From Raja brachyura (Eukaryota): DNA of 64,000 nt. Every line of letters begins with the position of its first letter. Positions within the stretch are counted from its first letter, which is position 1. The translations under genes and the position numbers were made by a program. Positions 4,381-44,140 of this stretch are shown here, piece after piece. Location: the NCBI GenBank assembly GCA_963514005.1, contig OY740781.1, forward strand, positions 23,560,001 to 23,624,000, in the 5' to 3' direction. The notes under the pieces are model-generated. The model searched no databases and was not told the origin of the DNA. It was given only the letters and a program-made list of their open reading frames with translations.

Positions 4381-4457
4381 ATTGAATTCCCTTCCAAAAG
4401 CAAAGAGCAAAACACTTCATGTTGTTAAAGAAGGAACTGCAGATGCTGGAGAATCGA

Positions 4458-4646
4458 GGGTTACACAAAAAGCTGGAGAAACTCAGCGGGTGCAGCAGCA
4501 TCTAAGGAGCGAAGGAGATAGGCGACGTTTCAGGTCGAGACCCTTCTTCAGACTGAAGAAGGGTCTCGACCCGAAACGTCGCCTATCTCCTTCGCTCCTT
4601 AGATGCTGCTGCACCCGCTGAGTTTCGCCAGCTTTTTGTGTAACCC
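4458..4646. repeat. 189-bp near-perfect palindrome of a Penelope-derived short repeat
   Basis: gggttacacaaaaagctgg...cttcag A ctgaag...ccagctttttgtgtaaccc; 94-bp arms, 1-nt centre at 4552, 2 mismatches seen. Confidence 0.95.
4553..4580 (+). ncRNA. Minimal hammerhead-ribozyme-like core (representative copy)
   Basis: CTGAAGA-A-GGGTC-TC-GACCC-GAAAC-GTC = CUGANGA box, stem II, GAAA box, NUH triplet; stem I is not evident. Confidence 0.4.
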
Positions 4647-4896
4647 AGAAAAACACTTCAGATGTGTTTGCATGGAAAATGCTGGGAACTATAGGCCAGT
4701 GAGCTACAAACTCCATACACACAGCACCCGTCGTCAGGATCTAACCTAGGTCTCTGGAGCTATACTGCAGCAACTCTACCTCTGCCCCGCTATGCCGCCC
4801 TAGATTAGATCTCAACATTACCACTAATGGCCACATTTCATTAGAAAACAAGGTAAGCAGAAGGTTTTCTGCTTACCTTCCTGCATCTAGCCTGTC

Positions 4897-7954: not shown

Positions 7955-9410
7955 TCCCCTACTCCCAATTCTTCCGTCTACGCCTCATCTGCTCCCAGGA
8001 TGAGGTGTTCCATACCAGGGCATCGGTGATGTTCTCATTCTTTAGGGAACGGGGGATCCCCTCTTCCATTATGCATTGAAAAGATGCATTGAACAAGCTC
8101 TAGGCTTGTATTCACTGGAGTTTAGAAAGATGAGGGGGGATCTTATAGAAACGTATAAAAGGACTGGACAAGCTAGATGCAGGAAAAATGTTCCCAATAT
8201 TGGGCGAGTCCAGAACCAGGGGCCACAGTCTCAGAATAAAGGGGAGGTCATTTAAGACTGATCTGAGAAAAAACTTTTTCTCCCAGAGAGTTGTGAATTT
8301 ATGGAATTCTCTGCCACAGAGGGCAGTGGAGGCCAAATCACTGGATGGATTTAAGAGAGAGTTCGATAGAGCTCTAGGGGCTAGTAGAGTCAAGGGATAT
8401 GGGGAGAAGGCAGGCACGGTTTATTGCTAGGGGACAATGAATGGCAGTGCTGGCTCGAAGGGCCAAATGGCCTCCTCCTGCACCTATGTTCTATGTTTCT
8501 ATGAGGCTCTCACTAGGGTCTCTATATACCGCAGCTCCACTCTTACTCCCCCTTCCCCTATTCGTAACAATGACAGAGTCGCCCTTGACCATCACTTTCT
8601 ACCCCATCTGCTGTCGCATAGAACATATAATCCTCCAACATTTTCGCCACCTCCAATGGGATCCCACTACTGGCCATATCTCCCCATCTCCACCCCTTTC
8701 TGATTACCGCAGAGACCGTTCCCTCCATAACTCCCTGGTCAATTCATCCCTTCCCGCCCAAACCACCCCCTCCCCAGGTACTTTCCCCTGCAACCGCAGG
8801 AGATGCAACACTTGTCCTTCTACCTCCCCCATCGACTCCATCCAAGGACCCAATTAGTCTTTCCAGGTGAGGCAGAGGTTCACTTGCACCTCCTCCAACC
8901 TCATCTACTGTATCCGCTGTTCCAGGTGTTAACTTCTCTACATCTGCGAGACCAAGCGCAGGCTCGGCGATTGTTTCGCTGAACACCTCCGCTCAGTCCG
9001 TCGTAACCAACCTGATCTCCCGGTTGCTCAGCACTTCAAATCCCTCTCCCATTCCCAATCTGACCTTTCTGTCCTGGGCCTCCTCCATTGTCAGAGTGAG
9101 GCCCAGCGCAAATTGGAGGAACAGCACCTCGTATTTCACTTGGGTAGTTTACACCCCAGCGATATGAACATTGACTTCTCTAATTTCAGATAGCCCTTGC
9201 TTTCCCCCTCCCCCTTCACAGTTCTCCTACAAGTCCTATTGTCTCCGCCCACTTTCTCTCTTTTTCCTGCCCCCCCCCCGACATCAGTCTGAAGAAAGGT
9301 CTCGACCCAAAACATCACCCATTCCTTCTCTTCATAGATGCTGCCTCACCCACTGATTAATCCAGCATTTTGTGTCTATCTTTGATTTTATCCAGCATCT
9401 GCAGTTATTT
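7955..9410 (+). mobile_element. Penelope-like retroelement remnant (RT C-terminus, GIY-YIG endonuclease, terminal repeat), interrupted by a CR1
   Basis: PCNRRRCNTC zinc-knuckle linker, then FTCTSSNLIYCIRCSRC*LLYICETKRRLGDCFAEHLRS (GIY-YIG), followed by the ctgaaga...aaac terminal motif at 9289. Confidence 0.88.
8085..8502 (+). mobile_element. CR1 3' end nested in the Penelope remnant
   Basis: MFPILGESRTRGHSLRIKGRSFKTDLRKNFFSQRVVNLWNSLP; ttctatgtttctatg tail; Penelope sequence resumes afterwards. Confidence 0.9.
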
Positions 9411-10844
9411 CTCACACAAAATGTTGTCTGTCCATTTTCCTCCATACATGCTGTCTGACCTATTGAGTTTATAGAGCACTTTGATTTTTGTTCAAGATTC
9501 CAGCAACTGCCGTCTCTTGTAACTTCCTCTTCGAAACCAACAATAGTTTTGTAAAATATTTCAGAATATCTGAAAGTCTAATTGTTCTTTAGGAAGTGTT
9601 CAGTTGTCTGGAGTTTCTAATCAGTCAAGTGCCACCACTTTCATCTGACGTCAAAGTGAATTGCCAAATGGACTCTGGTGTATGTAACCCCATTTCAATG
9701 TGATTTGCAATCAGGTCCCTGCTGTAGAGTGGTGTCAGTTTTAGAGATATCACAAGTCTTGTGAGCAGATACTTCATTTCAACAACAATCTTAACGTAGT
9801 AGAACAAAGAATCGCAGATGCTGGTTAATACACAAATAAACATAATGTGCTGGAGTAACTAAGCGGGTCAGTCTGAAGAAGGGTCTTGAACCGAAACATC
9901 ATCTATCCATGTTCTCCAAGGATGCTGCCTGACCCGCTAAGTTACTCCAGCACTTTGTGTTCTTAATAACATAAATAGATTCCTGAGAGAATAGAAGGAC
10001 AAGCAATGTGAATCTCCCCATGAGACATATAACACAAAATCTGACGCACTTACCCTCAACCAACCTCTAACTATGTACTTTAGAAATGAGACAATCTGTC
10101 TACAATAATTTACAGTGATTATCCCTTGATAAAAGATTTTCAAGACATTGTTGGAACAACACAAGCCAAGAAATGTGATTGCAAAGCTTTGGGTATTTCA
10201 TCATGTTATAGTGCACTAACAATGTAAACCAGAGTAAATGACATTAACATTCACTTATGGATCATATTGTGCTAATCACTAAATTGGATTGGGCATTTTT
10301 GGTCAAGTTCCTTTTTTTTAGGTCTGGTCTGCCGTATAAATTCAACAATAGGCTTGCCATTAACAACATACTACAAAGCAAAGAAGCTTAATCTGAATTT
10401 AATTGCTACTTAACTACCACATGATGTTAATTGGTCTCATTCTATCAGGGATGCTCCCTTTGTTCCAAGCACCGCTGCTAATTAAAATAAATAATTAAAT
10501 TGGAAAGTATACAGAGAAGATTTACGAGGACATCGCCAGGACTCAACGGTCTCAGCTGTAGGGAGACGTTGGGCAGGCTGGGACTTTATTTATTGGAGTA
10601 CAGGAAACTGAGAGTTATCTCAGGTATGTAAAATCATGAGGGGAATGGAGAAAGTAAATACACTGTATCTTACCCAGGGTTAGGGAAATCAAGAACCAGA
10701 GGACTGAGGATAAAAGAGGGGCAACATTTAATAGGAACCTGAGGGGCAACCTTTTCACACAGAGGTGGTGTGTATTTGGAACAAACTGCCAGAAGAGGTG
10801 GTTCAGGCAGGTATTATAAGAGTATTTAAAATACTCTTGGACAG

Positions 10845-12864
10845 TGTAGATTGGTTATTGCATGTGAACCAATCATAATAGAGTAGCTTCACTAAAACCA
10901 CCTTACTGTATGATTTATATTAACACCCACTTCCTACATTAGGTAGTCTTGGAAGCGGTGATGATGAATTAACAATTCACAACCTGCTGTACCGTTATAC
11001 TATGTGTTACAATTAAAGATGACTTTAAACTCCAGACCTGTGTAACATAATCATTTACATGGTGTCAGAAGTGGGATACGAACCCATGCCTCCAATCGGA
11101 GACCAATTAGCACATTTGAGGAGTCCACTGTGCATACACTCCTTCACACAGCTGGTAAGATTTTGTATCCCTCTGTATCAATGTCAATTAACAACAAGCC
11201 TGTGTAGGCCAAGCTGGATATGGGTGCCCGCGTGAATGTAATGTCTGTGAATGTCTACATGAGATGAAAAATAATGAGACCTTGACTAGAGACCGCTCTA
11301 CCTTAAGTGCTTATGGGGAAGAACTACCTTTAAATGTGTGCTGCAAAACACCACAAGAAATCTGACTTTCTATATCTTAAAATCTGACTCTGTGACTACT
11401 GGGCATCCATATGTGCCAAGACCTAGGGCTAGTCTCCTTCGACCGCTCCGTTCACAAGTTATTAATATCTGAGGACCAGCTCGAATCTGCCCATGAGGAT
11501 GATCCAATTAGCACATATGAGGAGTCCACTGTGCATACACTCCTTCACACAGCCACTGATGGCACTCTTCAGCTACTCTCATCAATAATCAAAAGAGGCT
11601 GGCCAGACAGACAATCCAGCACACCACTGGAGCTTCAGCCATTCTACCTCGTTCGCGATGAGCTGGTAATACAGTTATGGTGTCATGGTTAAAGGCCACA
11701 AAGTCGTGATCCCCTCATCATTACAAGACAAATACTACAAAGAGGCACACAACGGTCACCCAGGTACCAAGGCCACGTTGGCTCACGCACAGAGCATGTT
11801 CTATTGGCCCAGCATGGCCAAATACATACGGGACAGAACAGCCTCCTGTCCCATCTGCAACAGTTTGGCACCACACCAACAGAAACAGCCTCTGCTACAA
11901 CAACCCCAACCAGCACTGCCTAGGACGTCGCTGGCAGCAGACATTTTCGAATGGCACGGTAAACACTACCTAGTCCTGGTCGACTCCTACTCTAACTGGT
12001 TCGAACTCAATTTACTGCCCTCCATCACATCCAAAATGGTCATTCATAAGCTACAGAAACACTTTTCCACATTTGGCGCACCAGTCCGTCTGCAAACTGA
12101 CAAATGAAGACAATTTACCAGTCACATATTCAAACACTTTCCCAACCGATGGAACTTCCACCATGTCACAAGCAGCCCTGAATACCCTCAAAGTAATGGG
12201 CTCGCTGAACGGGCCATCAGGAGCGCAAAACAACTCATGGCTCACTCGTGCCGAAAGGCAGCGCAGCTCATCTTCGATTCTGACATCGGGGAATGATGGA
12301 GGCTATTAGAAATCGACTATGAACACTATATCAACATCGTCCATCGTAATGAACCAGATGCTGTCAAGGCTTCTTTTCTACTAAACCTGGCGGAACCGGC
12401 GGCCCTGTCTAACAACAACACTACCTCTCCCGCATGTTCACCCTATTGGTCGCCTAAAGTGCCCCCAGCTGCTTTCTCCCCTCCGGGGTCACTGCTTCCC
12501 TCCCCCACTAACCTTTCTGGTGCGGAGGGAGAGGGGTTGGTCCATACGCGTTCGGGTCGTATTAGTAGACCTCCTGACGGATACGGCGAATGCGTTTAAA
12601 TTTGCGCGTCTTACATGTGCTTAACTATATCCGCTCTTTACGGGAAGGATGTGGATTGGTTATAGCATGTGAACCAATCATAGTAAAGTGGCATCACTAA
12701 CCCCACCTTACTGTATGCTTTATATTAACACCCACTTCCTACATTAGGTAGTCTTGGAAGCGGTGATGATGAATTAACATCTAACAACCTGCTGTACCGC
12801 TATACTATGTGTTATAATAAAAGATGACTTTAAACTCCAGACCTGTGTAACATAATCATTTACA
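10845..12864 (+). mobile_element. Internally deleted Ty3/Gypsy LTR retrotransposon inserted in an old CR1 fragment
   Basis: Two 215-bp TG...CA LTRs (10845-11059, 12650-12864, about 15 differences); PBS at 11060; purine tract gggaagga before the 3' LTR; protease relic AKLDMGARVNVM; integrase HHCC (AHNGHPG...CPIC) and core (YLVLVDSYSNW...LQTD); no gag/RT seen; possible degenerate 5-bp TSD gacag/gaatg. Confidence 0.93.
11060..11105 (+). other. Extended primer-binding site complementary to the 3' part of tRNA-Leu(CAA), including CCA
   Basis: tggtgtcagaagtgggatacgaacccatgcctccaatcggagacca; reverse complement = 3' anticodon stem, variable arm, T arm, acceptor stem and CCA of vertebrate tRNA-Leu(CAA). 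Confidence 0.9.
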
Positions 12865-14350: not shown

Positions 14351-14554
14351 ACATAATTTACAAATTCATTATTAAATTCATTATCTCATGTTGCATTCAC
14401 TTTTTCTTAAAGATCCCTCTTAAAGGTAACGATATTAATTAAGCCTTTTTCTGGTTGTTTCCTTTTTCTGGTTGTTTTCATGTACTGATCTAGAAAAGAT
14501 ATTTCATACACATTTTATGAACTTGTCCACTTTATTACTGCTTATTTGGCTGAG

Positions 14555-14762
14555 ACAATAGGTGCAGGAGTAAGCCATTTGGCCCTTCAAGCCAGCACTG
14601 CCATTCAATATGATCATGGCTGATCATCCACAATCAGTACCCCATTCCTGCCTTCTGACTCTGCTATCTTTAAGAGCTCTATCCAACTCTCTCATGAAAG
14701 CATCCAGAGAATTGGCCTCCACTGCCTTCTGAGGCAGAGAATTCCACAGATTCATAACTCTC
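14555..14762 (-). mobile_element. CR1 3' fragment
   Basis: Reverse complement of the CR1 3' UTR (gacaataggtgcaggagta...ggcagagaattccaca). Confidence 0.85.
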
Positions 14763-14937
14763 CATTGTTCAAATATGCAGATTAGACTTTTCCAAGATTA
14801 TTGAATTACTCTAATTATTTACATCTCTACTTTTCTGATGTCTGTCATGACCAATGGTACAGTTAATATTTGTGGGGGTGTCTATATAAATGTCAGAAGT
14901 GTTTCCTGCCTCTTGCATTTTCCTAGCTCAACTCAAA

Positions 14938-15487
14938 CTGAAGAAGGGTCTCGACCCGAAACGTTACCCATTCCTTCTCTCCAGAGATGCTGCCCGTCCC
15001 GCTGAGTTACTCCAGCATTTTGTGTCTACCTTCAAACTAATTTTAATTCTACATAGGAATATATTGAGCCAAATAATTTCTTACTACAGCACAGATCACA
15101 ACTGTTTTTAATAGCATAGAATGAAATGCTCGGAGAAGGAGAAAGAGGTGCAGCGCACAGGCCTTGAACCTGGTGAGACGCAGGAGGAGCCCTGCCGGGA
15201 GTCACCCCACAGAGCCCAGTCCCTCCATGCACTAGAGTCTCCCAACTCCTGCAGAGTAGTTATTAAGATGGCTGATCCGTGGGCGGTTGCTGCTGGGACG
15301 CAAGTCGGGGCCTGATCAACCCCAACTGGGTCGCCTGGGCGAGGGTGTCTAATGTTGTGAGACCCGAAACACCTGACGACCTCAGGTCACACCACTGAGG
15401 ATGTGTCCCAGCTCATCTAGAAGATGTATTTTTCACACCTCCATTTCCATTGTGCCTTTCTTCCCAAATGTCGTTACCTTGAACATT
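14938..15487 (+). repeat. Left arm of ~550-bp inverted duplication
   Basis: Reverse complement of 17221-17771, about 95% identical in the stretches compared; near-identical 64-aa ORFs at 15121(+) and 17587(-). Confidence 0.95.
15258..15432 (+). mobile_element. 3' end of a HERO-like (restriction-like endonuclease) non-LTR element; second copy at about 17275-17450 (-)
   Basis: IKMADPWAVAAGTQVGA* and the following cctgatcaacccc...gacccgaaacacc...gatgtgtcccag resemble fish HERO C-terminus and 3' UTR (from recollection). Confidence 0.5.
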
Positions 15488-16828
15488 CAGTTCCCATCTT
15501 TGGAACTCCTGCATCCACCTTTCTGTATTGGAAATTAGATAATTTACTTCTATTTAAGTCAATAGTTTGTCTATCTGGTTATTAATGGTGCATGCATTTT
15601 GATGGAGTACATTTAATTTTCCACTTTTAACATTTCCCGTACTTTGACTCAAAAGTTTTGCATCATTGCAATCTCAAATTCTAGAACAATTAGAATGGAC
15701 AGTTTAGATTACATCAAATGTGATTACATCATGTGTGAAAGGTTTTTGTTTTAATTGAAGAAAAGTCTGGAACTTATTATAGACATTCCCATTATTAATA
15801 CATAACCTGCCTTTTTCAAAACAAATGATTGTGTCATAAAAGGCAGCCTTTTAGCTCAATCCAGAAATAAGCTCATGCAATCTTATTTAGTGTTGTTTTC
15901 AATTCAAATGATCAAAGGAAGTTCAACAACAATTTTCTTGTTAATGTAAAACGTTACCAGACATTTTATGATACTCAATTACATTGTCATGCCCAACACA
16001 GCTCTTTTTATAGATTGTATTTTTTCCCCCATATATTCCCATCATGGTGCTGCAATTTTGGAAGGAACGGTTCTTCCATTGATTTGAAAATGAAGTAAAT
16101 TAAATGTAATTAATTGGATGGAGTATATAGAGGTCTTCAGTCTTCCTGGTCTCCTTAGTTTTATAACTGGTGAATACTGTGCAATGATATTAATGGCTTA
16201 TGTATTTTGGCACAATACCAAAGAAGTATTTACACAAAAGCTAATAGTCACAATTCCAAGGACGCTAAATGAATAAACAAGGTGACCTCCATTGGTGAGA
16301 ATGTTGCAGGTGACAAACAGCAGTTTTTTTAACATATTGTTAAAGGCTATATTAGTTTCATTTTAATAGAGATAGTTTTATATAATATATTATCACTTGT
16401 GAATATCAAGGGGTCATGATTATGCAGTTCACGATGCCAAACATTTGTATTAAAATATGTTCAATTGAAAAAAGGAAAAGTGCACTTGAATCATAAGAAA
16501 CATAACTTAAATGTAAAATCATAAATAAGTAGAGTGCTGAATCAATATAAAGCAGGGATTTGACAAGATAAATAGAAATACTGCACTGTACTTCATGCCT
16601 CTAACCCACAATCCCATTGATATTTTACAGTAAAACAATAAGTATGAACCTAAACTTAACAGCTGAAAAATGATTTTGGTGACTTTGATTTTTCTGAATC
16701 ATAATGTGATATGTAGAAGTTGTTAGAAATGAAAATCTCTTTGTATGGTTGCAAACATTGTTCATTTTGTTTTATTTAAAGAAAAATAAATCCACGTTCA
16801 CCTGAACAACACATGAACACATGCTCAC

Positions 16829-16958
16829 CTGTAACTAGTGTATCACCTGGGATGTCCTCTATGATGCATTTTTCCTCTGTTTCCCCCTGATGAAAATAGA
16901 GGGCAAAGGAGAGACTGCAGCTCAAAATGAAAAGAAATCCCTTGACTAGAGCCTTCAT
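16829..16958 (-). CDS. TMED11: TMED11-like exon 1 (signal peptide and GOLD start)
   Basis: gaaATGAAG...ACAG|gtgagc; 130 bp, phase 1; [44 protein letters not shown] matches p24-alpha LYFHxGETExKCxIExIP. Adjacency to SPON2 supports TMED11 over TMED4/9. Confidence 0.92.
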
Positions 16959-17220
16959 TTCAATTTCTGATTCAGTAACATAAGCAAAACACTGTTGAAA
17001 GACACGTCGCACAAAGCCTGTCTACTGATTTAACTGGGGCACTTCAGACCAGCTTTGGGAAGGTTAGGTGAAAATACTCTCACATTGTATAAGAACACCA
17101 CCCAGTGGCAGTTAATATTGGTGATCACTCAATAATATTCTTACAGGAATTGCTGGAAATTTAGTTTTATTTAAAGTTAAACATGTTTGCATGCCTGGTA
17201 TTATTTTGCCAGTTTTGGGA

Positions 17221-17771
17221 AATGTTCAAGGTAACGACATTTGGGAAGAAAGGCACAAAGGAAATGGAGGTGTGAAAAATACATCTTCTAGATGAGCTGG
17301 GACGCATCCTCAGTGATGTGACCTGGGGTCATCGGGTGTTTTGGGTCTCACAACATCAGACACCCTCGCCCAGGCGACCCAGCCGGGGTTGATCAGGCCC
17401 CGACTTGCGTCCCAGCAGCAACCGCCCACGGATCAGCCATCTTAATAACTACTCTGCAGGGGTTGGGAAACTCTAGTTCATGGAGGGACTGGGCTCTGTG
17501 GGGTGACTCCCGGCCGGGCTCCACCTGCATCTCACCAGGTTCAAGGCCTGTGCGCTGCACCTCTTTCTCCTTCTCCGAGCATTTCATTCTATGCTATTAA
17601 AAACAGTTGTGATCTGTGCCGCAGTAAGAAATTATTTGGCTCAATATATTCCTATATAGAATTAAAATCAGTTTGAAGGTAGACACAAAATGCTGGAGTA
17701 ACTCAGCGGGGACAGGCAGCATCTCTGGAGAGAAGGAATGGGTGATGTTTCGGGTCGAGACCCTTCTTCAG
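17221..17771 (-). repeat. Right arm of ~550-bp inverted duplication
   Basis: Reverse complement of 14938-15487. Confidence 0.95.
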
Positions 17772-18102
17772 ACTGATATGAGGGTGGGGGGGGGGGGGGG
17801 AGACGGGAAGAAGAAAGGAGGTGGGGCCAGTGGGCTGAGGGAGAGCTGAGAAGAGGAGGAGAAAGTAAGGACTACCTGAAATTAGAGAAGTCAATGTTCA
17901 TACCGCTGGGGTGCAAACTGCCCAAGCAAAATATGAGGTGCTGCTCCTCCAATTTACGGTGGTCCTCACTCTGGACCAAGGAGGCCGAGGACAGAGAGTT
18001 GAAGGGAAGGGGGAATCATAGAAGGGTGATAGTGAGGGAGGAGGTTATTAAACTGTCTTCGGAGGGAGGAGGAAAACCTCTTCAAAGTATGCATACCTTG
18101 AG
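17772..18102 (-). mobile_element. Penelope-like 3' fragment contiguous with the right inverted-repeat arm
   Basis: Reverse complement of 17870-17975 matches the GIY-YIG end at 9105-9195 (ggaggagcagcacctcatatt...gaacattgacttctctaatttcag). Confidence 0.8.
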
Positions 18103-18174
18103 GTTTTCCTAATATCCTACTCTTTTGTGTGTGCCATGACAATGATTATTAGTATCTATTTAAATGTTTAGTTT

Positions 18175-19288
18175 AGAAACATAGACATAGAAAATAGGTG
18201 CAGGAGTAGGCCATTCGGCCCTTCGAGCCTGCACCGCCATTCAATGTGATCATGGCTGATCATCCAACTCAGTATCCCGTACCTGCCTTCTCTCCATACC
18301 CCCTGATCCCTTTAGCCACAAGTGCCACATCTAACGCCCTCTTAAATATAGCCAATGAACTGGCCTCAACTACCTTCTGTGGCAGAGAATTCCAGAGACT
18401 CACCACTCTCTGTGTAAAGAATGTTTTCCTCATTTCGGTCCTAAAGGAATTCCCCCTTATCCTTAGACTGTGACCCCTTGTTCTGGACTCCCCCAACATC
18501 GGGAACAATCTTCCAGCATCTAGCTTGTCCAACCCCTTAAGAATTTTGTAGGTTTCTATAAGATCCCCCCTCAATCTTCTAAATTCCATCGAGTACAAAC
18601 CGAGTCTATCCAATCTTTCCTCATATGAAAGTCCTGACATCCCAGGAATCAGTCTGGTGAATCTTCTCTGTACCCCCTCTATGGCAAGGATGTCTTTCCT
18701 CAGATTTGGAGACCAAAACTGTACACAGTACTCCAGGTGTGGCCTCACCAAAACCCTGTACAACTGCAGTAGAACCTCCCTGCTCCTATACTCAAATCCT
18801 TTCGCTATGAATGCTAACATACCATTTGCTTTCTTCACTGCCTGCTGCACCTGCATGCCTACTTTCAATGACTGGTGTACCATGACACCCAGGTCTCGTT
18901 GCATCTCCCCCTTACCTAATCTGCCACCATTCAGATAATAGTCTACCCTCATGTTTTTGCCACCAAAGTGGATAACCTCACATTTATCCACATTGTACTG
19001 CATCTGCCATGCATCTGCCCATTCACTCAGCCTATCCAAATCACCCTGCAGCCTCCAAGCATCCTCCTCACACCTAACTATACCCCCTAGCTTGGTATCA
19101 TCTGCAAATTTGGAGATGTTGCATTGAATTCCCTCGTCCAAATCATTAATATATATTGTAAATAGCTGGGGTCCCAGCACTGAGCCTTGCGGCACCCCAC
19201 TAGTCACTGCCTGCCATTCTGAAAAGGACCCGTTTACTCCTACCCTTTGCCTCCTGTCTGCTAGCCAGTTCTCTATCCACATCAATAC
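18175..19288 (-). mobile_element. Young 5'-truncated CR1 with uninterrupted RT C-half, inserted in a SINE tail
   Basis: About 335 aa open: GVPQGSVLGP, KFADDTKLGG, RPHLEYCVQFW...GYGEKAGTGY*; ttagttt tail sequence on both sides. Confidence 0.96.
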
Positions 19289-19295
19289 ACAACAA

Positions 19296-19606
19296 TTAGT
19301 TTTGAGAAATAGCGCAGAAACAGGCCCTTCGGTCCACCTGGTCTGTGTCGACCAGCGATCCCCGCATAATAACACTGTCCTACATACACTAGGGACAATT
19401 TACATTTACACCAAGTCAATTCACCCACATACCTGTACGTCTTTGGAGCGTGGGAGGAAACTGAACATTTCGGAGAAAACCCACGCGGTCACAGTGAGAA
19501 CGTACAAACTCAGTACAGACAGTACCTGTAGTCGGGATCAAACCCAGGTCTTCGGCGCTATATGTGCTGTAAGGCAGCAACTCTACTGCTGCGCCACCAT
19601 GCTGCC
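19296..19606 (-). mobile_element. tRNA-derived SINE
   Basis: Minus-strand head ggcagcatggtggcgcagcagtagag (A box), gggtttgatccc (B box), conserved core, CR1-like 3' end; many homologues in the window. Confidence 0.88.
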
Positions 19607-19996
19607 ATGAGACAACCCATTCCACCATCTGACATCCATGGTTCCACTGTGTTGCTGGACAGTGATGGGTGGGATTGTCTCTTCTTTTAGCCTCCAGAAA
19701 TAGACTAATTTCTATCCCTACTGCCACTCAAATTGAATTAAGCTAACTGAAAATAGACACAAAATGCTGGAGTAACTCAGTGGGACATGCAGCACCTGTG
19801 GGTAGAAGAAATGGGTGACATTTCGGGTCGAGACCCTTCTTGAGACTCAATGTTTGAACCTGGCACCTCTCTTTTAGGCTGACACAATACCACACCAACT
19901 CCTGATTAGACTGCCAGCAAAACACATAGCTCCACACTTCAACTAAGTAGAATAACCGATGAGTGTATTGACCAGATGTCAGATATGGGAATAATT

Positions 19997-22736: not shown

Positions 22737-23653
22737 TAAACAAGTTGACCTTCTTTGGTGAGCATGTTGCAGATGACAAGCAGCAGTTTTTCAATAGCTT
22801 GGTAAAGGAAATATTTGTTCCAATTTTAGAACAGATAATGTTATATAACATTGATGCTTAAGTACAAAGGATCATGACTATGCAGTTAAGGATGCCAAAC
22901 ATTTGTGTTAAAATATGTTCAAATGAGAAAAGAAAATGTACGCTTGAATTGTAAGAAATACAAATCTCAGAAGTAAAATTATAGATGAGGAGAGTGCAGA
23001 ATCAATTAAAACAGGCATTTGATTAGATAAATAGGTGAAAATACAATGTACAAGAGCACCACCCAGTGGAAATTAATTGTGGTAATCCCTAAATAAAAAT
23101 CTTAAATGTGTCATACAGCACAGAGACAGGCCCTTCAGCCCAAATTGCCTTTTCTGACCAAGCTGCCCCATTTTTATTGGTCCCACTTGTCCGTGTTTAA
23201 CCTGTATCCCTCTAAACCCTTCCTGTCTATGTACTTGTTTAATGTTGTTAGAGTATCGAATTGATGAAAACAAATATTTTATTTTTATTGTAACGATTCC
23301 TTTGTGTTTGTGTGCCTGAAATTATTTTCCCAGCTTTGCCTAATATCCTACTCTTTCTTTTATGTGTGCCATGACAATGATTATTGGTATCTATTTAAAG
23401 GTGAGGACATCCCATTCTACCATCTGACATCCATGGTTCCACCAGGTGTTGCTGGACAACGGTGGGTGGGATTGCCTCTTCTTTCAGCCTCTCAGGATAC
23501 TCGGGATGAATTTCTATCCCTACTGTCACACAAATTGAAGTAAGCTAACGCTGAAGATGGACACAAAATGCTGGAGCGAAATCAATGCAAGATCAATGGT
23601 TGGACTTGGAACCAGTTTTTTGCAGATGCAACATCCCACCAACTCCTGATTAA
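22737..23653 (-). pseudogene. Diverged duplicate of the TMED11 5' region lacking exon 1
   Basis: Collinear homology to 16274-16575, 17065-17216, 18108-18167, 19608-19770 and 19891-19911. Confidence 0.8.
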
Positions 23654-23849
23654 ACTTGGCAATTTTTTTTTTGCAGGTTCCAGTGGTGGGCACTTATTTG
23701 AATGTAATGACCTTGATACAGGACACTTAGAAAACCAACATAAATTTAGAACATAGAGGCAATTGTACATTAGATTAATTATTTTCTATAAACTCAGTTA
23801 TGGAGTCTGCAAGAAGATACAACGGAGACTCATCAGCCATAAACACCTT

Positions 23850-31455: not shown

Positions 31456-31634
31456 TTACACACAGTTGTGCAGAACACATTGCTCCTCTTCCTCCAGCAC
31501 TGGGCATGGGGTACCACTGTTGGCTGGTTTCAACCTGATGTAACGGGTACGATGCTTAATACCCATCTCTGTGCACTTCCCCACGCACAAGCCCCAGGAG
31601 GACCAGTTGGAAACTTCACAATCCAGTGGGGTCT
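31456..31634 (-). CDS. SPON2: Spondin-2 last coding exon (thrombospondin type-1 repeat)
   Basis: cattacag|AG ACC...GTG TAA; 179 bp, phase 1; [21 protein letters not shown]...[31 protein letters not shown]. Confidence 0.97.
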
Positions 31635-31953
31635 CTGTAATGAACACAGAAATCAGTTACAATTATTTTTTCTATGGTTCAGTAATGTAAAAGCATGAAC
31701 AATTAATGCAAGCTTTCTGTGAATCCTAACCATTACGCCGTTATATAGTTTAGAGGTACAGCGTGGAAACAGGCCCTTCGGCCCACCAAATCCACACTGA
31801 CCATCGATCGCCCATACGCTAGTTCTACGTTATCCCACTTTTGTATCCAACACACTAAGGGTAATTTACAGTGCTTAATTTATCTACAAACCTGCACATC
31901 TTTGGAATCTGGGAGGAAATTGGAGCACCCGGAGAAAACCCAAAAGGTCACAT

Positions 31954-33374
31954 AGAGAGGCGGGGGAGAGAAAACAGGGAATTATAGACCAGTTAGCCTG
32001 ACATTGGTGGTGGGGAAGATGCTAGAGTCAATTATAAAAGATGAGATAGCCGCACATTTTTATAGCAGCAACAGGATTGGTCCGATTCTGCATGGATTTA
32101 CGAAGGGGATATCATGCTTGACTAATCTTCTGGAATTTTTTGAAGATGTAACTAGGAAAATGGACCAGGGAGAGCCAGTGGATGTAGTGTACCTGGACTT
32201 TCAGAAAGCATTTGATAAGGTCCCACATCGGAGATTAGTGGGCATAATTAGGGCACATGGTATTGGGGGTAGAGGGGGGGGGGGGGAACCATGGATAGAG
32301 AAGTGGTTGGCAGACAGGAAACAAAGAGTAGGGATTAACGGGTCCCTTTCAGAATGGCAGGCAGTGACTAGTGGGGTACCGCAAGGCTCGGTGCTGGGAC
32401 CGCAGCCATTTACAATATACATCAATGATTTGGATGAAGGGATTCAAAGTAACATTAGCAAATTTGCAGATGACACAAAGCTGGGTGCCAGTGTGAATTG
32501 GGAGGAGGATGCTATGAGAATGCAGGGTGACTTGGACAGGTTGGGGGAGCGGGCAGATGCATAGCAGATGACGTTTCATGCGGATAAATGTGAGGTTATC
32601 CACTTTGGTAGCAAAAACAGGAAGGCAGATTACTATCTAAATGGCGTCAAGTTGGGAAAAGGGGAAGTACAACGGGATCTGGGGGTCCTTGTTCATCAGT
32701 CTATGAAAGTAAGCATGCAGGTACAGCAGGCTGTGAAGAAAGCGAATGGCATGTTGGCCTCTATAACAAGAGGAATCGAATATAGGAGCAAAGAGGTCCT
32801 TCTGCAGTTGTACAGAGCCCTAGTGAGACCACACCTGGAATATTGTGTGCAGTTTTGGTCCCCTAATTTGAGGAAGGACATTCTTGCTATTGAGGGAGTG
32901 CAACGTAGGTTTACAAGGTTAATTCCCGGGATGGCGGGACGGTCATATGCTGAGAGAATGGAGCAGCTGGGCTTGTACACTCTGGAGTTTAGAAGGATGA
33001 GAGGTTATCTCATTGAAACATATAAGATTGTTAAGGGTTTGGACACGCTAGAGGCAGGAAACATGTTCCCGATGTTGGGGGAGTCCAGAACCAGGGGCCA
33101 CAGTTTAAGAATAAGGAGTAAGCCATTTAGAACGGAGACGAGGAAACACTTTTTCTCACAGGGAGTTGTGAGTCTGTGGAATTCTCTGCCTCAGAGGGTG
33201 GTGGAGGCAGGTTCTCTGGATGCTTTCAAGAGAGCAAGATAGGACTTAAAAATAGCGGAGTCAGGGGATATGGGGAGAAGGCAGGAACTGATTGGGGATG
33301 ATCAGCCATGATCACATTGAATGGTGGTGCTGGCTCGAAGGGCCGAATGGCCTACTCCTGCACCTATTGTCTAT
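31954..33374 (+). mobile_element. CR1 RT region and 3' UTR, truncating a SINE (31748-31953, minus strand)
   Basis: YLDFQKAFDKVPH, GVPQGSVLGP, KFADDTK, RPHLEYCVQFW; one internal stop. Confidence 0.95.
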
Positions 33375-33661
33375 GACTGGAAACTGAAACCGCAGTTAAA
33401 GCTTAAATAAATCCTAGAACGATGTAGCCCAAGAGGAAGTCATCCGGCCCTCTTTGCTTGTGTCAGCCCTTTGAATGAAGCCTCCTAATTATTCACTCTC
33501 TGGGTGTATAATCTAGCTGGATGTGAATAATATAGCCGATGATAGACATGGACAAATAAAATTTGCAATGAGTGCTGGAGCCAATCCCTAACACGCAGAT
33601 AACAGATCAGTAGATAATTATTTCCTACTTATATTTGCATTAAGAGCAATTTATAACCTAC

Positions 33662-33839
33662 CCGAGACAGAATCATCTATTTCATTTCCCATGGGCAAAA
33701 GGTTGGACTGAACTGTTGAAATGCCAATTAACTGGCTATCCTTCAGCCTCGTCAGTGTTACTCTTGCAATTGCAGGCAGTTGCTTCAGTCTGGGATAGAA
33801 GAAAGAGTTTGCAGGGTGCCTTGGTGAACTCGACGTTAT
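33662..33839 (-). CDS. SPON2: Spondin-2 coding exon 4
   Basis: catttag|ATA...TCG G|gtaggt; 178 bp, phase 0/1; ITSSSPRHPANSFFYPRLKQLPAIARVTLTRL...GNEIDDSVS. Absent from the ORF track; translated manually. Confidence 0.95.
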
Positions 33840-34348
33840 CTAAATGATGGAAACACATTCAACAAGTACGTAGAGATATTGGCAATAATACATCTGTCAC
33901 TCAATCACTAAAATGTTGACACACATACATAGGGGGCAAGTAATGTACAAAATATTTCTGAAATCATGGAGATTTATTTAAATTATATCATTTTGACATG
34001 TTCATGTGTAAAAGTATAAAGAAACATTGGATGTCAGCTAATAGATGTCAAATAATAGATCATTCATTTCTAATATATACATTTGAAAACATGATCCTGA
34101 ATCAACTCATTAATAAACAAATTAGTGTTAAGACAGAATTGTGCTATATTCTGATATAAATGGACAATTACAAGATAGTAAGTGTGAAACAAAAGCAAGA
34201 CAGTCAACATGGAAACAGGCATTTCGGCCACCTTGCTCATGCTGACCAAGATGCCCCATCTACTTGTCCACCTACCCACGTTTGGCCTATATTCCTCTGA
34301 ATCTTTCCTATCCATGTACCTGTCCAAATATCTTGTAAATGTTGTTAA

Positions 34349-35947
34349 AGGGAGGTTGCATGACAGTCGAGGTCACGACCCATGACCTGTACTGGGTCGT
34401 GAAGAAAGCAAATGGTATGTTAGCATTCATAGCGAAAGGATTCGAGTATAGGAGCAGGGAGGTTCTACTGCAGTTGTACAGGGTTTTGGTGAGGCCACAC
34501 CTGGAGTATTGCGTACAGTTTTGGTCTCCAAATCTGAGGAAAGACATCCTCGCCATAGAGGGGGTACAGAGAAGATTCACCAGACTGATTCCTGGGATGT
34601 CAGGACTTTCATATGAGGAAAGATTGGATAGACTCGGCTTGTACTCGCTGGAATTTAGAAGATTGAGGGGGGATCTTATAGAAACTTACAAAATTCTTAA
34701 GGGGTTGGACAAGCTAGATGCAGGAAGATTGTTCCCGATGTTGGGGGAGTCCAGAACAAGGGGTCACAGTCTAAGGATAAGGGGGAATTCCTTTAGGACC
34801 GAAATGAGGAAAACATTCTTTACACAGAGAGTGGTGAGTCTCTGGAATTCTCTGCCACAGAAGGTAGTTGAGGCCAGTTCATTGGCTACATTTAAGAGGG
34901 CGTTAGATGTGGCACTTGTGGCTAAAGGGATCAGGGGGTATGGAGAGAAGGCAGGTACGGGATACTGAGTTGGATGATCAGCCATAATCACATTGAATGG
35001 CGGTGCAGGCTCGAAGGGCCGAATGGCCTACTCCACCTATTTTCTATGTTTCTATGTACTGTTGACACCCAATGCCTTCTGGAGTACAAGCGGTGAACGT
35101 CAGGCAATCACTTACTATGGCTGCCAGTATAGCGGACCCATCTTCTGTCGCAGCATCCGGACTCCACACCGACCGGTTCCACACTTGCGGACCCCGGGCC
35201 GTCTGTCCCCTCGTGTGGTGGTCTGGGGGGGGGGGGGGGGGGGGATGAATCACTGCGTGTGTGGGTCGGGGTCCAAGTGGGTGAATCACCCCGTGTGGTG
35301 GTGGGGGTCCGGGGGTCGGGTGGGTGAATTACCCCATGGTGGGGGTCGGGGTCCAGAGCCGGTGCATCGCGGTCAGTGACTCTGGGTGGGCGGATGGACC
35401 AGACTGTCCCCAACTCTGCTGCAGCTGACGGGGACGTTGCCGGGTTTTCGTCCCCGTGTGTCCGCTGCCCAGAGCCGCGGACCCACTCCATCCGGCCCCG
35501 TGTGTGTGCGCTGCCAACCCACAGCCCATCACAGTGCGGCCGCTCAGGGGGAGACGGGCCAGAGGGCGGCCGTGGCCGGACAGCGCTGACCCGGTGAGGA
35601 GAGTGGGGGGGGGGGGGGGGGCTATCCCGAGGGATGCGCTCCATCGGTCACTTACACCTTGGTCACCCTCCATCCCCTGCTGTCGTGGGTCAAGACTTGC
35701 CCTCAATCCACCGGCAAGTTGCTCTTTCGCAAGTCAGTGAGCAGCAGTGATTTTGGCAGTTTTCTCTCATGGTTACCCCTATTTCCACAATTTTGTACAG
35801 CGTAACAATTGACCATTTTGACGTTTTTTTAAAAGGTAAGAACGTACGTGCTTCGTGTGTTACTAGTGAATGCCGGAAGCTGCCTTGCACTCCAGAAGGA
35901 TTGAGCTACTCACACCTTTGACCTTACGACCTTGCGTGCAACCCCCT
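34349..35947. mobile_element. GC-rich non-autonomous DNA transposon with nested CR1
   Basis: Imperfect TIRs agggaggttgcatg / cgtgcaaccccct at a TA-rich site; the host CR1 tail aaatgttgtta|tagtacc rejoins when it is removed. Confidence 0.65.
34397..35057 (+). mobile_element. Young CR1 3' portion
   Basis: VKKANGMLAFIAKGFEYRSREV...GYGEKAGTGY*; almost identical to the 18175-18845 copy. Confidence 0.95.
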
Positions 35948-36409
35948 TATAGTACCAGCCTACCACTATCTCCTCTGGCAGTGCGTTCCGTACACCCACC
36001 ATAGTCTGTACGAAACAAATTACCCTTTAGATTCCTATATATTCCTCTAATGATCTTATACACCTCTGTAAGGTCACCCCTCAACCTCCTGCGCTCCAAG
36101 GAATAAGTCCTAGCCTGCCCAACCTCTCCCTATAGCTCAGGCCCTCAAGTCCTAGCAACATCCTCATAAATCTTCTCTGCACTCTTTCCAGCTTAACAAC
36201 ATCCTCCCTAGTAGGGTGACCTACTTAATTTTGGTTGGAAACTCTCCTCTTGTGTCAGAGTTTAGACCTGTGGATACACATTGGGTCTTGCTGACTACGG
36301 TATTGACCCTGTAGAATGTATTCTGGACGTAAATGAAAACTAAATGCTAGAAATCCAAAACAAAGCCAGACAATGCTGTAAACAAATCAGGTGAGGTTGG
36401 ATCAGTAGC

Positions 36410-36712
36410 TTAGTTATGAGATGCAATGTGGAAACAAGCCCTTCGGCCAACCGAGTCCGCGCCAACTGGCGATCGCTGTACACTAACACGATCTACACAC
36501 TAGGGACTATCTACAATTTTTACCAAAGCCGATTTTTACCTACAAACCTATACGTGTTTGGAGTGTGGGAGGAAACCAGAGTACCCGGAGAAAACCCACG
36601 TAATCACGGGGAGAACGTACAAACTCCGTATGGACAGCACCTATGGTCAGGATCGAACCCTGCTCTCCGGCGCTGTAAGGCAGCAAGTCTATCACTGCAC
36701 ACATTGTGCCAC
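36410..36712 (-). mobile_element. tRNA-derived SINE
   Basis: Homologous to 19296-19606; B box gggttcgatcc on the minus strand. Confidence 0.82.
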
Positions 36713-37296
36713 ACTTCAAAAAGAACAGGTGGGACGTGAAGATAGGGCTTCTTGGTCAGCACAAGTAGACAAAAGAAGCAGTTAATGCTTCAGATCTGAG
36801 ACCCTTAGTTCTGACGTTCTCTTTCTGCTGCCCTGAAGAGTGTTTTCACCATTTTCTGCTTTTGTTTCCCTCAGATGTACTCTGAGGGAGACTTTCATCT
36901 CCTGGAAGCCAGTACAGTCCCACAATTACCCACTAGCTCAGTTCCTCGAAGCACTGTTCTGCGATGGGGAGCAGTGCCACTCACACCTACTGATTTTCAG
37001 ATCCACAATTTTGGCTCAATCAGATATTCTCAACAATGATATCCATGACTACAGATGCATCAGAGTCAAGCTCAATGCTGTCATCAACACATGTGGCACT
37101 GACCAAGATGGACCCTTCAAATACCACAGCAACTAATGTGGACATTGGCAGGTTGAGAACCACATGATTTGTACAATATCATATCTGCCAAGCCATTAGG
37201 ATATACAAGGAGATCTAGGTAAATTAACTTTTGACACCATACTGGAAGGATTTCCATGGATGTACTTTGTATGGATGCTTTCCATTGTGCTGTTAC

Positions 37297-37488
37297 CTCA
37301 GTGATCGTGTCTTGGGGAATAGTGGCAAAATTTGGAGAAGAGAACGTGAAGCCACTGTCTGTTCCAGCATCGTAAGGATACAGATCTACAGAGACTTGCT
37401 CCTTCCAAGTGTCTCCTTCACACAGATCAAAACTGTCACTACCCACAAACCAGTCTGGACTTGGCACAATGCGAGCAATGAATGACAT
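37297..37488 (-). CDS. SPON2: Spondin-2 coding exon 3 (spondin domain)
   Basis: ttgcag|ATG...GAG|gtaac; 192 bp, phase 0/0; [22 protein letters not shown]...[30 protein letters not shown]. Confidence 0.97.
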
Positions 37489-37675
37489 CTGCAAATAAGC
37501 ACAAGGAACTTGGTTAATCCTTTTACTATAATGCGTACCAAAATGTTCTGCGATTATCTCACCGTATGCCAATAGAATGAAGGTACAAGTATGTCTACGG
37601 GATTTTTTTTTAGTCGGTTCCCTTGCAGTCATTAGGCTGGGTAGTAAATTACAGGTGAAACCTATGTTTACCTAC

Positions 37676-38270
37676 GTCACAGCTTAGGGATAAGGGGGAA
37701 ATCCTTTAGGACCGAGATGAGAAGAATTTTTTTCACACAGAGAGTGGTGGGTCTCTGGAACTCTCTGCCACAGAGGGTAGTTGAGGCCAGTTCATTGGCT
37801 ATATTTAAGAGGGAGTTAGATGTGGCCCTTGTGGCTAAAGGGATCAGGGGGTATGGAGAGAAGGCAGGTACGGGATACTGAGTTGGATGATCAGCCATGA
37901 TCATATTGAATGGCGGTGTAGGCTCGAAGGGCCAAATGGCCTACTCCTGCACCTAATTTCTATGTTTCTATGTTTAGTTTAGAGATACATCGTGGAAACA
38001 GGCCCTTCGATCTACCGAATCCATGCCGACCAGCGATTCCCGTACACTAGAACTATCGTACACACTAGGGACAATTTACAATTCGTACCGACTGCCAATT
38101 AGTCTACAAGCCTGTACATATTTGGACTGTGGGGAAAAACCGGAGCACCAGGAGGAAATGCATGCCGTCACAGCGAGATCGTACAAGCTCCGTACAGACA
38201 GCACCCATAATCAGGATCGAACCCAGGTCTCAGTTTCTATAAGGCCGCAACTCTACCTCTGTGCCACCAC
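37676..38270. mobile_element. CR1 3' end (+, 37676-37972) tail-to-tail with a tRNA-derived SINE (-, 37973-38270)
   Basis: CR1 ttctatgtttctatg tail abuts the SINE tttagtttag tail. Confidence 0.88.
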
Positions 38271-38414
38271 TAGTTTGCTTTACTATTGGCATGGATAGGA
38301 TCCAAAAGTATATCCAAATGAATGAGTTGGTTGCTTGGGGGAAAAAAGTTTGTAAATTATCCAGTGTAAATTACAAAAGAGAAGGTCGATTGATACAGAA
38401 AAGTAAATACTCAC

Positions 38415-38638
38415 CAGAGAATGTCTGGCGTGCACCTCAAATTCAGTCGAAGTCTGTTCCACACCATTCGGGATAGCTGGAGTTGAGAAAATGCCATAGA
38501 CACTTTGGATTTTCTCGCCCGACGCTTCAACCTCTCGCATTAATGTCCAGGCCTCACTTTTCTCCACAAACTCCCGCACTCCGTTACTGGCATATTCACC
38601 CACCCTCCACATGTGGTAGTCACTGCTGTGGCTGACGA
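38415..38638 (-). CDS. SPON2: Spondin-2 coding exon 2 (spondin domain)
   Basis: ctttattcag|TC GTC...CTG|gtgagt; 224 bp, phase 1/0; [51 protein letters not shown]...FEVHARHSL. Confidence 0.97.
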
Positions 38639-39060
38639 CTGAATAAAGATCACAGACGTTACTCAAGAGCATTTATTTTATGATTTTTCATGCAAATCAA
38701 AAGTAAAACATCTAAAGAAAAATGTGTCCAATGACCAGAATCCAGAAATACAATCCTACATTAAGGAGAGTCCCCATTACTGCACCACTATCAGTACATT
38801 ACAGGAAGCCATTTGGCTCCATGCAAAAGCAATTCAGTTATCCCTGGCTTCCCACAAAGCTGCTCCTTTCACATCAAGGAATTCATTGCCACGGACGGCT
38901 GTGGAAGCCAAGACAAAATGTATATTTTTAAGGCAAGAGATTGACAGATTCTTGATTAGGACGGAAGTCAAGAGTTATGGGGAGAAGGCAGAATAAGGGG
39001 GATTGTGACGAATAGATAGGTCAGTCATGATGTGAAAGAGCGGAGTGGACTTGATGGATA

Positions 39061-39874
39061 GAATGTGGATAAATGTGAGGTTATCCACTTTGGTGGCAAA
39101 AACAGGAAAGCAGACTATTATCTAAATGGTGGCCGATTAGGAAAAGGGGAGATGCAGCGCGACCTGGGTGTCATGGTACACCAGTCATTGAAAGTAGGCA
39201 TGCAGGTGCAGCAGGCAGTGAAGAAAACAAATGATATGTTAGCTTTCATAGCAAAAGGATTTGAGTATAGGAGCAGGGAGGTTCTACTTCAGTTGTATAG
39301 GGTCTCGGTGAGACCACACCTGGAGTATTGCGTACAGTTCTGGTCTCCAAATCTGAGAAAGGACATTATTGCCATAGAGGGAATGCAGAGAAAGTTCACC
39401 AGACTCATTCCTGGGATGTCAGGACTGTCTTATGAAGAAAGACTGCATAGACTCGGTTTATACTCCCTAGAATTTAGGAGATTGAGAGGGGATCTTATAG
39501 AAACTTTAAAAATTCTTAAGGGGTTGGACAGGCTAGATGCAACATTGTTCCCGATGTTGGGGAGGTCCAGAACAAGAGGGTCACAGCTTAAGGATAAGGG
39601 GGAAATCCTTTAGGACCGAGATGAGAAGGACTTTTTTCACACAGAGAGTGGTGGGTCTCTGGAACTCTCTGCCACAGAGGGTAGTTGAGGCCAGTTCATT
39701 GGCTATATTTAAGAGGGAGTTAGATGTGGCCCTTGTGGCTAAGGGGATCAGAGGGTATGGAGAGAAGGCAGGTACGGGATACTGAGTTGGATGATCAGCC
39801 ATGATCATAATGAATTGGCGGTGCAGGCTCGAAGGGCCGAATGGCCTACTCCTGCACCTAATTTCTATGTTTCT
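39061..39874 (+). mobile_element. CR1 3' portion
   Basis: DKCEVIHFGGKN...RPHLEYCVQFW...GYGEKAGTGY*, with one frameshift. Confidence 0.95.
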
Positions 39875-40476
39875 AATACTTCTATAACTTATGAATTATT
39901 CATCTGGCCCCATTTCTGAGCACTACAATTTAATCTACTATTCCCCCGACACTACATTCTAGATCCTAACCACTGACTGCATAAGACAATTGTTCTCATT
40001 ATGTCTGATTCTTTTGCCAATCAGGTTATTCTGTACCCACTATTTCTTGACCTTCCTGCCAATGGAAATGATCATTTTGGATGGGGGCTGAATGACGACA
40101 GGGCAACTTACTTTACTCTCCCAAATAGTAGCATTGTTTTTTTTTAGCATCCATCCAAGAGCAGGCAAGAGTTCAAAAGATATAATATCCAATCATGCAG
40201 GGCTCCCTCATTGAATTGTCAACCCAGAATGTGAGATGGTCTTAGAGATTGGCATGAAACGAGTATTATCTTAGTGTCATTACCAATCCCGAAATATCTT
40301 TCCATCACATGATATCTTCAGCATAAATATTATTTAATTCGAGGGACAAGATGAGAAGTTTCTGTACAAAGAGAGATGCCAGTCTTGCAAATTATTAATC
40401 CCAGACATTGTCAATGCTCAGATAGTGAACATATTTAAGACAATGATCAGTAATCTTTTTTTGAATGCCAACATAC

Positions 40477-40765
40477 GGGCAGCATGGTGACGCAGTGGTA
40501 GAGTTGCTGCCTTAACGCAAAGAGACCCGGGTCCGAATCCTGACTCTGTCTGTACAGAGTTTGTACGTTCTCCCCGTGACATGCATGGGTTTTCTCCAGG
40601 AGCTCTGGTTTCCTCTCACACTCCAAAGATGTACAGGATTGTAAGTTAATAGGCTTGGTGAAAATTGTAAATTGTCCTTGATGTATGTAGGATCGTGTTA
40701 ATGTGCAGGGATCACTGATCACCATGGCCTCAGTGGGCCGAAGGGCCTGTTTTCTTGCTGTATGA
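40477..40765 (+). mobile_element. tRNA-derived SINE
   Basis: gggcagcatggtgacgcagtggtagag A box; gggtccgaatcc B box; conserved core. Confidence 0.85.
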
Positions 40766-41169
40766 CTGTCATGCAAAGTGGATGCCATTGAGTCTCCTTC
40801 TGAGTTCCCACCTTCCCGCATTTTAAGAAAGAACTGCAGATGCTGACAAAATCGAAGGTAGATACAAAATGCTGGAGAAACTCAGTCGGTGAGGCAGCAT
40901 CTATGGAGAGAAGGAATTGGCAACGGTTCGGGTCGAGTCTGAAGAAGGGTCTCAACCCAAAACGTCTCGACCTGAAATGTTCCTTCTCTCCATAGATGCT
41001 GCCTCACCCGCTGAGTTTCTCCAGCATTTTGCGTCTACCTTTAATTCATTTTAATTCATGTGTAAGCATTAGACACAGCACAACATCTCACTCAAGACCT
41101 GTGCTACAAAACTAACAATGGCTTGGATTGTCCCTTACGCTTACCGATTTCTAACCAACGATGTGAAGG

Positions 41170-44100: not shown

Positions 44101-44140
<40 letters not shown>

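Follow-up and report, generated by a model that had tools for sequence, protein, structure and literature searches.

How did the first exon of a TMED11-like gene in the skate Raja brachyura come to lie between two closely similar DNA arms in inverted orientation, and does this arrangement do anything for the gene? The arms lie at 14938-15487 and 17221-17771 of a stretch of 64,000 nucleotides (assembly GCA_963514005.1, contig OY740781.1, positions 23,560,001 to 23,624,000), which is called the window here. An earlier note, made from the letters alone, had described them as one duplication of a mosaic tract and had proposed a candidate inversion polymorphism or structural switch. According to our analysis the locus is an inverted duplication of local DNA, old and formed with the involvement of a Penelope-like element (PLE), and as such a variant of the known capture of host DNA by such elements, and the duplication is probably without function.

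Inverted arms around exon 1

Self-BLAST paired 14927-15487 in inverted orientation with 17782-17221 (562 columns, 95.0% identity), and a repeat finder returned 14998-15487 and 17221-17710 as an inverted pair of 96% identity with a spacing of 1733 nt, so that both methods recovered the inverted repeat described before. The core, 14938-15486 versus 17222-17771, holds 19 transitions, 4 transversions and one single-base indel over 550 columns (95.6%), in agreement with the previous estimate of about 95%. The Kimura two-parameter divergence of the arms is 0.043. Changes affect 10 of the 46 CpG columns versus 13 of the 503 other columns, and 3 of the 52 GpC columns taken as a control; five CpGs were lost in the right arm and four in the left arm. 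The differences are old decay of methylated DNA, independent in each arm. Read error is excluded as their source, because they are rich in transitions, enriched at CpG and spread over both arms.

Two parts of the mosaic claimed for the arms were found again, namely the pseudo-long terminal repeat (pLTR) of a PLE with a hammerhead-type core and the scrap of a CR1 endonuclease, which is matched by a CR1 copy in the window. The unique DNA claimed between them exists, but it is probably shorter, with a relic open reading frame (ORF) of 64 codons running into a HERO-like 3′ end that reaches to about 15430; this middle part may derive from a HERO non-LTR retrotransposon. The ORF is open in both arms (15121-15315, plus strand; counterpart 17587-17393, minus strand). 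As a gene it was rejected, since the arms differ in it by six non-synonymous and no synonymous changes. Neither the ORF nor the middle of the arm gave a match in the Pfam scan, which covered 159 of 261 listed ORFs of at least 45 aa outside repeats (123 + 36). The ORF pair resembles an internally deleted retroelement.

A single insertion upstream of the start codon

The right arm is real but forms only part of a larger insertion, which extends to 18107. This became visible by comparison with a decayed direct paralog of 16274-19912, found at 22737-23656 (plus strand) with 80-95% identity by block, the outer blocks being the most identical ones. The paralog contains neither exon 1 nor the insertion: it has a deletion of about 490 bp (equivalent to 16575-17064) which includes exon 1 and shows a TAG microhomology, and it joins the equivalents of 17217 and 18108 directly at an empty site, 23338/23339. 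The flanks of this site align above chance (1/2000 and 0/2000 shuffles score as well), and no insert sequence was detected at it (102/200 shuffles score as well). Because the paralog is continuous across the site and holds no insert, 17218-18107 (minus strand, about 890 bp) is one insertion with zero loss of target, the empty site being that of a paralog and not of an allele. The paralog is also collinear with the spacer between the arms, which is therefore in its ancestral orientation.

Three parts can be distinguished within the insertion, all read on the minus strand. The right arm (17218-17771) consists of a pLTR (17771-17674) and an inverted copy of the DNA flanking the left pLTR on its 3′ side, as given by the arm alignment. 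It is followed by 17772-18000, a Penelope-like 3′ UTR with the C-terminal end of a GIY-YIG endonuclease, without counterpart at the left arm. The 5′-most piece (18001-18110) ends in an imperfect palindrome of 41 nt (18070-18110) overlapping the junction; its predicted hairpin is more stable than expected (z −4.4, 0/200 shuffles as good). No reverse transcriptase region was found in the insert.

Comparison with other copies supports the assignment of the outer part of the insert, about 340 bp, to a putative fragment of an endonuclease-bearing PLE of Neptune type. Its Penelope part is 77-80% identical to 9048-9390, and its endonuclease peptide, which comprises the last ~45 aa only, matches the long copy at 8933-9190 with a score of 143 (0/2000 shuffles as good). 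This long copy scores 0.95-0.96 to GIY-YIG clusters, PF01541 being present on 15% of the members of the top cluster. Its translation (8780-9200), a region outside the insert itself, contains a CX2-5CxxC linker and CCHH-type residues; the cysteine linker of Neptune-type elements is defined in PMC8557442. A homolog search with the endonuclease end of the insert gave one match among 7 candidates, a skate gene model. Other comparisons contributed little: that of the 47-aa insert peptide with an atlas stayed below 0.9 and was uninformative, PDB gave 0 matches, and a search of representative proteins gave 887 matches, all without names. Pfam found no relevant family on the CR1 fragments. The skate model mentioned above (P0010) is named neuromedin-U receptor 1 and carries the Penelope endonuclease end at its C-terminus, probably by annotation read-through. 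The longest Penelope-like fragment of the window (8441-9420, plus strand) comprises linker, endonuclease, pLTR and tail and is interrupted by stops.

The pattern of the minimal hammerhead core, as described for the pLTRs of PLEs in the relevant part of PMC4209133, occurs at 14938 and 17771, and all 11 hits in the window fall into this pLTR family, as a sequence pattern only. Rfam gave 6 matches on 14500-18500, all far under the gathering scores and none to a hammerhead, and on folding the hammerhead was not the lowest-energy structure (z 0.44 and −0.98). An extension, the tail of ~35 nt, is present in 10 of the 24 listed pLTR copies, so that the family has two discrete 3′ ends; both arms carry the short form.

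The left arm as donor

The left arm (14938-15496, plus strand) is native DNA of intron 1. An old relic of a CR1 endonuclease (15431-15619, minus strand), recognized by the CR1 copy in the window, crosses its inner border at 15487 and continues into the spacer. The DNA match spanning this junction has a score of 23 (0/300 shuffles as good). For the spacer part by itself the CR1 peptide was compared with two pieces of the CR1 copy (1/2000 and 61/2000 shuffles as good), while the match at the DNA level was not significant (97/300). At the equivalent stretch beside the right arm no CR1 was detected in 6/6 frame tests (55-500 of 500 shuffles as good). The relic thus runs past the inner border at the left arm alone, which identifies this arm as the donor: with the pLTRs as homology, the right arm received a copy of about 460 bp of the left flank. 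The copy ends at ~15494-15496; the right inner junction tracks the donor to ~15496, lacks 4 nt present in the donor and has a 2-nt microhomology. The donor breakpoint carries a 7-mer (15488-15494, plus strand) that recurs without change close to where the Penelope tail ends, a match noticed post hoc; 2.4-2.8% of the 16-nt windows in 15040-17220 reach 7.

The left pLTR (14934-15038, plus strand) is of the short 3′ form, has its hammerhead-type core at 14938 and is flanked by CAAACT repeats at 14934-14939 and 15033-15038; a shared 6-mer of this kind has a chance of 0.022 in such windows. It begins and ends at points usual for the other copies in the window, and the DNA upstream of it is unrelated to that upstream of the right copy (1643/2000 shuffles score as well). 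That it is an earlier solo insertion, antisense to TMED11 and beside older relics, is well supported. As it has its own flanking repeat, the flank that was copied lies outside its own insertion. No empty site for the left pLTR was obtained from the paralog, as none of 10 tests over the left arm scored above shuffles. The right arm, unlike the left copy, combines the 3′ CAAACT with the upstream sequence of the element itself, and the insert is thus chimeric, joining a longer PLE to DNA from beside the left pLTR. The host DNA lies 3′ of the sole pLTR of the insert and is not enclosed by two pLTRs. The earlier view of one duplication in place of independent insertions therefore stands for the ~460 bp behind the pLTR, for which the direction is now established; it was incomplete in that it missed the likely earlier, solo insertion of the left pLTR and the longer Penelope insertion of which the right arm forms the tail.

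Origin of the right arm

Since the tail fits exactly between the end of the pLTR and the edge of the target, we infer a single event, and that a target-primed PLE insertion with a template jump produced the right arm has in our view somewhat better than an even chance. The short solo pLTR had very probably entered intron 1 before, antisense to TMED11 and beside older relics. The 890-bp piece inserted 260 bp upstream of the ATG and left the target DNA intact, its 3′ 550 bp made of pLTR and inverted intronic flank and its 5′ 340 bp of a longer PLE fragment. The PLE enzyme may have nicked the AT-rich promoter DNA, and copying may have started on a local template where the sequence resembles the PLE tail, most simply on an RNA that read through from the pLTR in the intron, this pLTR being directed toward the target. 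About 560 nt would have been copied back to the pLTR; there the homology of the pLTRs would have allowed a switch to the RNA of a longer PLE, before the 5′ junction was closed at the palindrome. Afterwards the arms decayed independently as methylated DNA. The 5′ palindrome and the two discrete 3′ ends agree with the anatomy of PLEs as far as it is covered by the consulted parts of PMC3846280, PMC8557442 and PMC11167929. For rotifer PLEs, PMC3846280 describes or proposes the capture of host DNA in trans, palindromes at the 5′ end, and read-through combined with template jumps.

Several points weigh against this reading. In the experiments reported in the consulted part of PMC11167929 the purified anole PLE enzyme begins reverse transcription within its own RNA, with added 3′ sequence serving only as a weak starting site, so that transduction of 460 nt would be a minor path, and the same pages state that the enzyme requires no target homology. 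The tail-like 7-mer is post hoc and suits repair in two steps, described below, equally well. The GTTTT present at 17212-17216 and 18103-18107 is a possible 5-bp target-site duplication, though of low complexity, with a chance of about 0.024, overlapping the palindrome and misfitting at one base. For 18001-18102 no source was identified, and no second copy was found in the window. Pfam detected no domain on the PLE fragments, and the homolog search with the linker region returned no full-length relative (0/2767 candidates). Where within the pLTR the switch took place cannot be located: the left and right copies are 96% identical, the next-best copy reaches 94%, and no private variant is shared. 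Finally, the sample is one haplotype of one species.

The main rival, clearly less probable and still a serious candidate, divides the process into two steps. The PLE would have inserted upstream first, and later, to mend a break, its 3′ end would have invaded the inverted pLTR 1.7 kb off, from one side only, and copied 460 bp past the homology before rejoining (ectopic synthesis-dependent repair). This yields the same product in the same direction, and 97 bp of close inverted homology are on hand. The PLE endonuclease nicks its own pLTR, as stated in the consulted part of PMC11167929; the 7-mer shared with the tail could serve as rejoining microhomology, and the 4-nt deletion at the junction suits end joining. 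However, the rejoining must delete the entire old 3′ end and yet no target, as target loss is zero, and most long tails in the window extend ~10 nt beyond the 7-mer.

Replication template switching without reverse transcriptase, by fork stalling and template switching or microhomology-mediated break-induced replication (FoSTeS/MMBIR), would require several jumps, namely to intron 1 by microhomology, to the pLTR of another PLE copy and back to the fork. Its typical marks, going by the relevant sections of PMC2583991, include 2-nt microhomology and inverted copies of local DNA, and the piece at 18001-18102 could be a further jump. We regard it as improbable: at least three switches are needed, the last of them a near-exact return, and the 5′ palindrome and the tail-like breakpoint are features of PLE type.

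A source element elsewhere which already bore the mosaic tail, that is a multi-copy composite family, might have given both arms. For the non-Penelope part of the arm, beyond its first ~97 bp, no third copy exists within the 64-kb window, the left pLTR has a flanking repeat of its own and the CR1 relic extends into the spacer, all of which leaves this origin quite unlikely.

Proposed inversion and control of exon 1

The proposal that the arms are an inversion polymorphism or structural switch was not borne out. That they serve as a substrate of recurrent inversion, an off-switch of TMED11 or a regulatory stem of the pre-mRNA around exon 1 is very doubtful. In the consulted part of PMC6748972 human recurrent inversions use repeats more than 90% identical and from 654 bp in length, and the corresponding part of PMC2583991 reports that close repeats can recombine on tracts below 50 bp. 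The pair is the closest and most identical inverted pair around exon 1, and the duplex of the arms is very stable (−1108 kcal/mol). The claim that a transcript would fold into a long stem holds to this extent: pairing would be strong in a transcript spanning both arms, the upstream start it presupposes being hypothetical.

Against a switch stands the orientation of the reference, which is ancestral: both the paralog and exons 2-4 run collinear with the spacer, which has not been inverted. The longest perfect tract shared by the arms is 90 bp, whereas the efficient minima in mammals are 134-232 bp (mitotic) and 300-500 bp (meiotic) in the portion of PMC2583991 consulted, values which may be lower for close repeats. 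Random placement of the 24 differences reaches at least 90 bp in 29% of cases; a tract of this length is thus expected by chance, and no homogenised block exists between the arms. The CpG decay in both arms indicates germline methylation and makes it less likely that the right arm holds an unmethylated promoter. A bias of A-to-G type as expected from RNA editing gave no signal between the arms (6 vs 2; C/T 6 vs 5). Rare flips are possible, but a flip would merely detach exon 1 and leave a null allele, the flipped state having no alternative product, and there is no indication of a regulated or frequent switch. Eight inverted pairs of at least 200 bp and at least 85% identity occur in the window, three of them bracketing exon 1 and four a spondin exon; the pair studied here is the only one of the eight that holds locally single-copy DNA.

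Scars of an inversion by staggered breaks, a process described in Drosophila, would explain why a native continuation is kept once at each arm (CR1 inside the left, Penelope outside the right), but in the paralog the right end of the spacer passes directly into the outer flank, oriented as it is today, and exon 1 shares its strand with exons 2-4, so we give this origin hardly any weight. An assembly artefact (fold-back read or misjoin) is practically negligible, as 19 transitions against 4 transversions, enriched at CpG and found in both arms, are evolutionary decay.

The TMED11-like gene and neighbouring repeats

The coding part of exon 1 (16958-16829, minus strand), with signal peptide and start of the GOLD domain, was recognized by protein matches and a GT donor. 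A protein search with it gave 9 matches among 11 candidates, 9/9 named TMED11-like and all from sharks and rays; the best one, TMED11-like of Rhinoraja longicauda, is identical in 41/43 aa. Exons 2 (7124-7024), 3 (5533-5408) and 4 (3424-3278) are open, have AG/GT borders, share the strand of exon 1 and follow in order. No exon 5 was found in the 64-kb window; it lies probably to the left of base 1. Exons 3 and 4 matched PF01105 (EMP24_GP25L), though each, scored as a single exon, stayed under the curated cut-off. From its protein matches the gene is assigned as TMED11-like (p24 alpha). A match to CIS_tube, also below cut-off, was taken as chance. The ATG lies 263 bp from the right arm, so that a spacer carrying the start codon, the signal-peptide exon and about 260 bp of upstream DNA had been described correctly. 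Between the ATG and the insertion the DNA is native (16959-17217, minus strand), with paralog blocks at 17065-17143 (84%) and 17183-17217 (80%).

Upstream of TMED11 and on the same strand lies a SPON2-like gene with Spondin_N and TSP1 exons (31459-42737, minus strand). The two genes are neighbours in mammals as well. Little is known about the function of TMED11, to go by the consulted part of PMC7045115.

Insertions of CR1 and of a short interspersed element (SINE)-like sequence at 18177-19611, absent from the paralog, displace the ancestral upstream DNA of exon 1 by another 1.4 kb, and 18179-18838 recurs in inverted orientation at 34399-35057 with 97.7% identity. Of the pLTR at 19748-19847 the paralog keeps just the last 25 bp (23552-23576). 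Intron 1 also holds the remnant of an LTR element (10845-12864) with 215-bp direct repeats of 93% identity, TG..CA ends, a stretch resembling a primer site after the first repeat and a match to an integrase zinc-binding domain at 11670-12104 (E 1e-14). Head-to-head pLTR pairs, the usual Penelope arrangement, occur at 4454-4650, 40853-41043, 46322-46535 and 53236-53519, and closely spaced inverted pLTR copies at 41763-42078 and 41977-42246, one pair being tail-to-tail. A near-perfect palindrome at 44057-44162 has unique arms of ~22 bp and a (TA)n core.

Significance and comparison with known systems

For TMED11 itself the event is probably of no consequence. Its value lies in being fully readable, with donor, acceptor, empty site and both junctions within 10 kb, and its anatomy addresses a mechanism that is still open, the completion of PLE integration and the capture of host DNA. 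One may tentatively go further and propose a recurrent route, flank hopping, in which a read-through RNA from a solo pLTR is reinserted nearby after a jump to a second PLE template, so that inverted repeats of host DNA would arise around genes; we hold this to be possible, with the balance somewhat against it. It predicts that, in PLE-rich genomes of sharks and skates, the long non-element tails of PLEs derive preferentially, as inverted copies, from DNA flanking a solo pLTR close by; were this common, local inverted duplications would be seeded by such pLTRs. This route alone is more likely than a regulatory use. That both hold together, with the upstream pLTR, in sense to TMED11, as an alternative promoter and a pre-mRNA self-complementary over 550 bp, is a long shot; exon 1 would then be looped out, edited, silenced or occasionally flipped as a tissue-specific control.

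In 3′ transduction by non-LTR retrotransposons an insertion brings along the DNA downstream of its source copy. The skate insert likewise carries downstream DNA of a source copy, but poly(A) is absent here, and, unlike in 3′ transduction, a second template was needed, because in its 5′ part the insert exceeds the source copy in length. The exact arrangement was not described in the open-access literature searched, which is weak evidence of novelty.

The inversion HsInv0030, which arose by non-allelic homologous recombination and exchanged the first exons of CTRB1 and CTRB2 (PMC6748972, in the part consulted), likewise has inverted repeats more than 90% identical near first exon and promoter. 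The skate arms differ from this class in being shorter than its smallest listed repeat (654 bp), and a flip would give a null allele and no exchange between paralogs. With FoSTeS/MMBIR, as outlined in the consulted sections of PMC2583991, the locus shares the inverted copying of nearby DNA and a junction with 2-nt microhomology; here, in contrast, a retroelement is attached to the copy, and at one junction the homology is 97 bp of element sequence.

Canonical PLEs of Neptune type, as far as the consulted parts of PMC8557442, PMC11167929 and PMC4209133 describe them, have in common with the insert the C-terminal GIY-YIG end, the pLTR with minimal hammerhead, an optional tail of 30-40 nt, heavy 5′ truncation and an AT-rich target. 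Their usual inverted repeat consists of two pLTRs set head-to-head within a single insertion, as seen here at 4454-4650, whereas the repeat studied is tail-to-tail, involves two loci and is mostly host DNA. The capture by PLEs of Adineta vaga, in the consulted part of PMC3846280, is alike in host DNA joined to pLTRs and mobilised in trans, in the proof by an empty site, in the 5′ palindrome and in the read-through and template jumps proposed there. It differs in that its host DNA sits between pLTRs and goes to a distant locus with an 8-bp duplication, whereas in the skate the host DNA is joined to the 3′ side of the pLTR, was taken from beside another, solo pLTR 1.7 kb away and forms a local inverted repeat.

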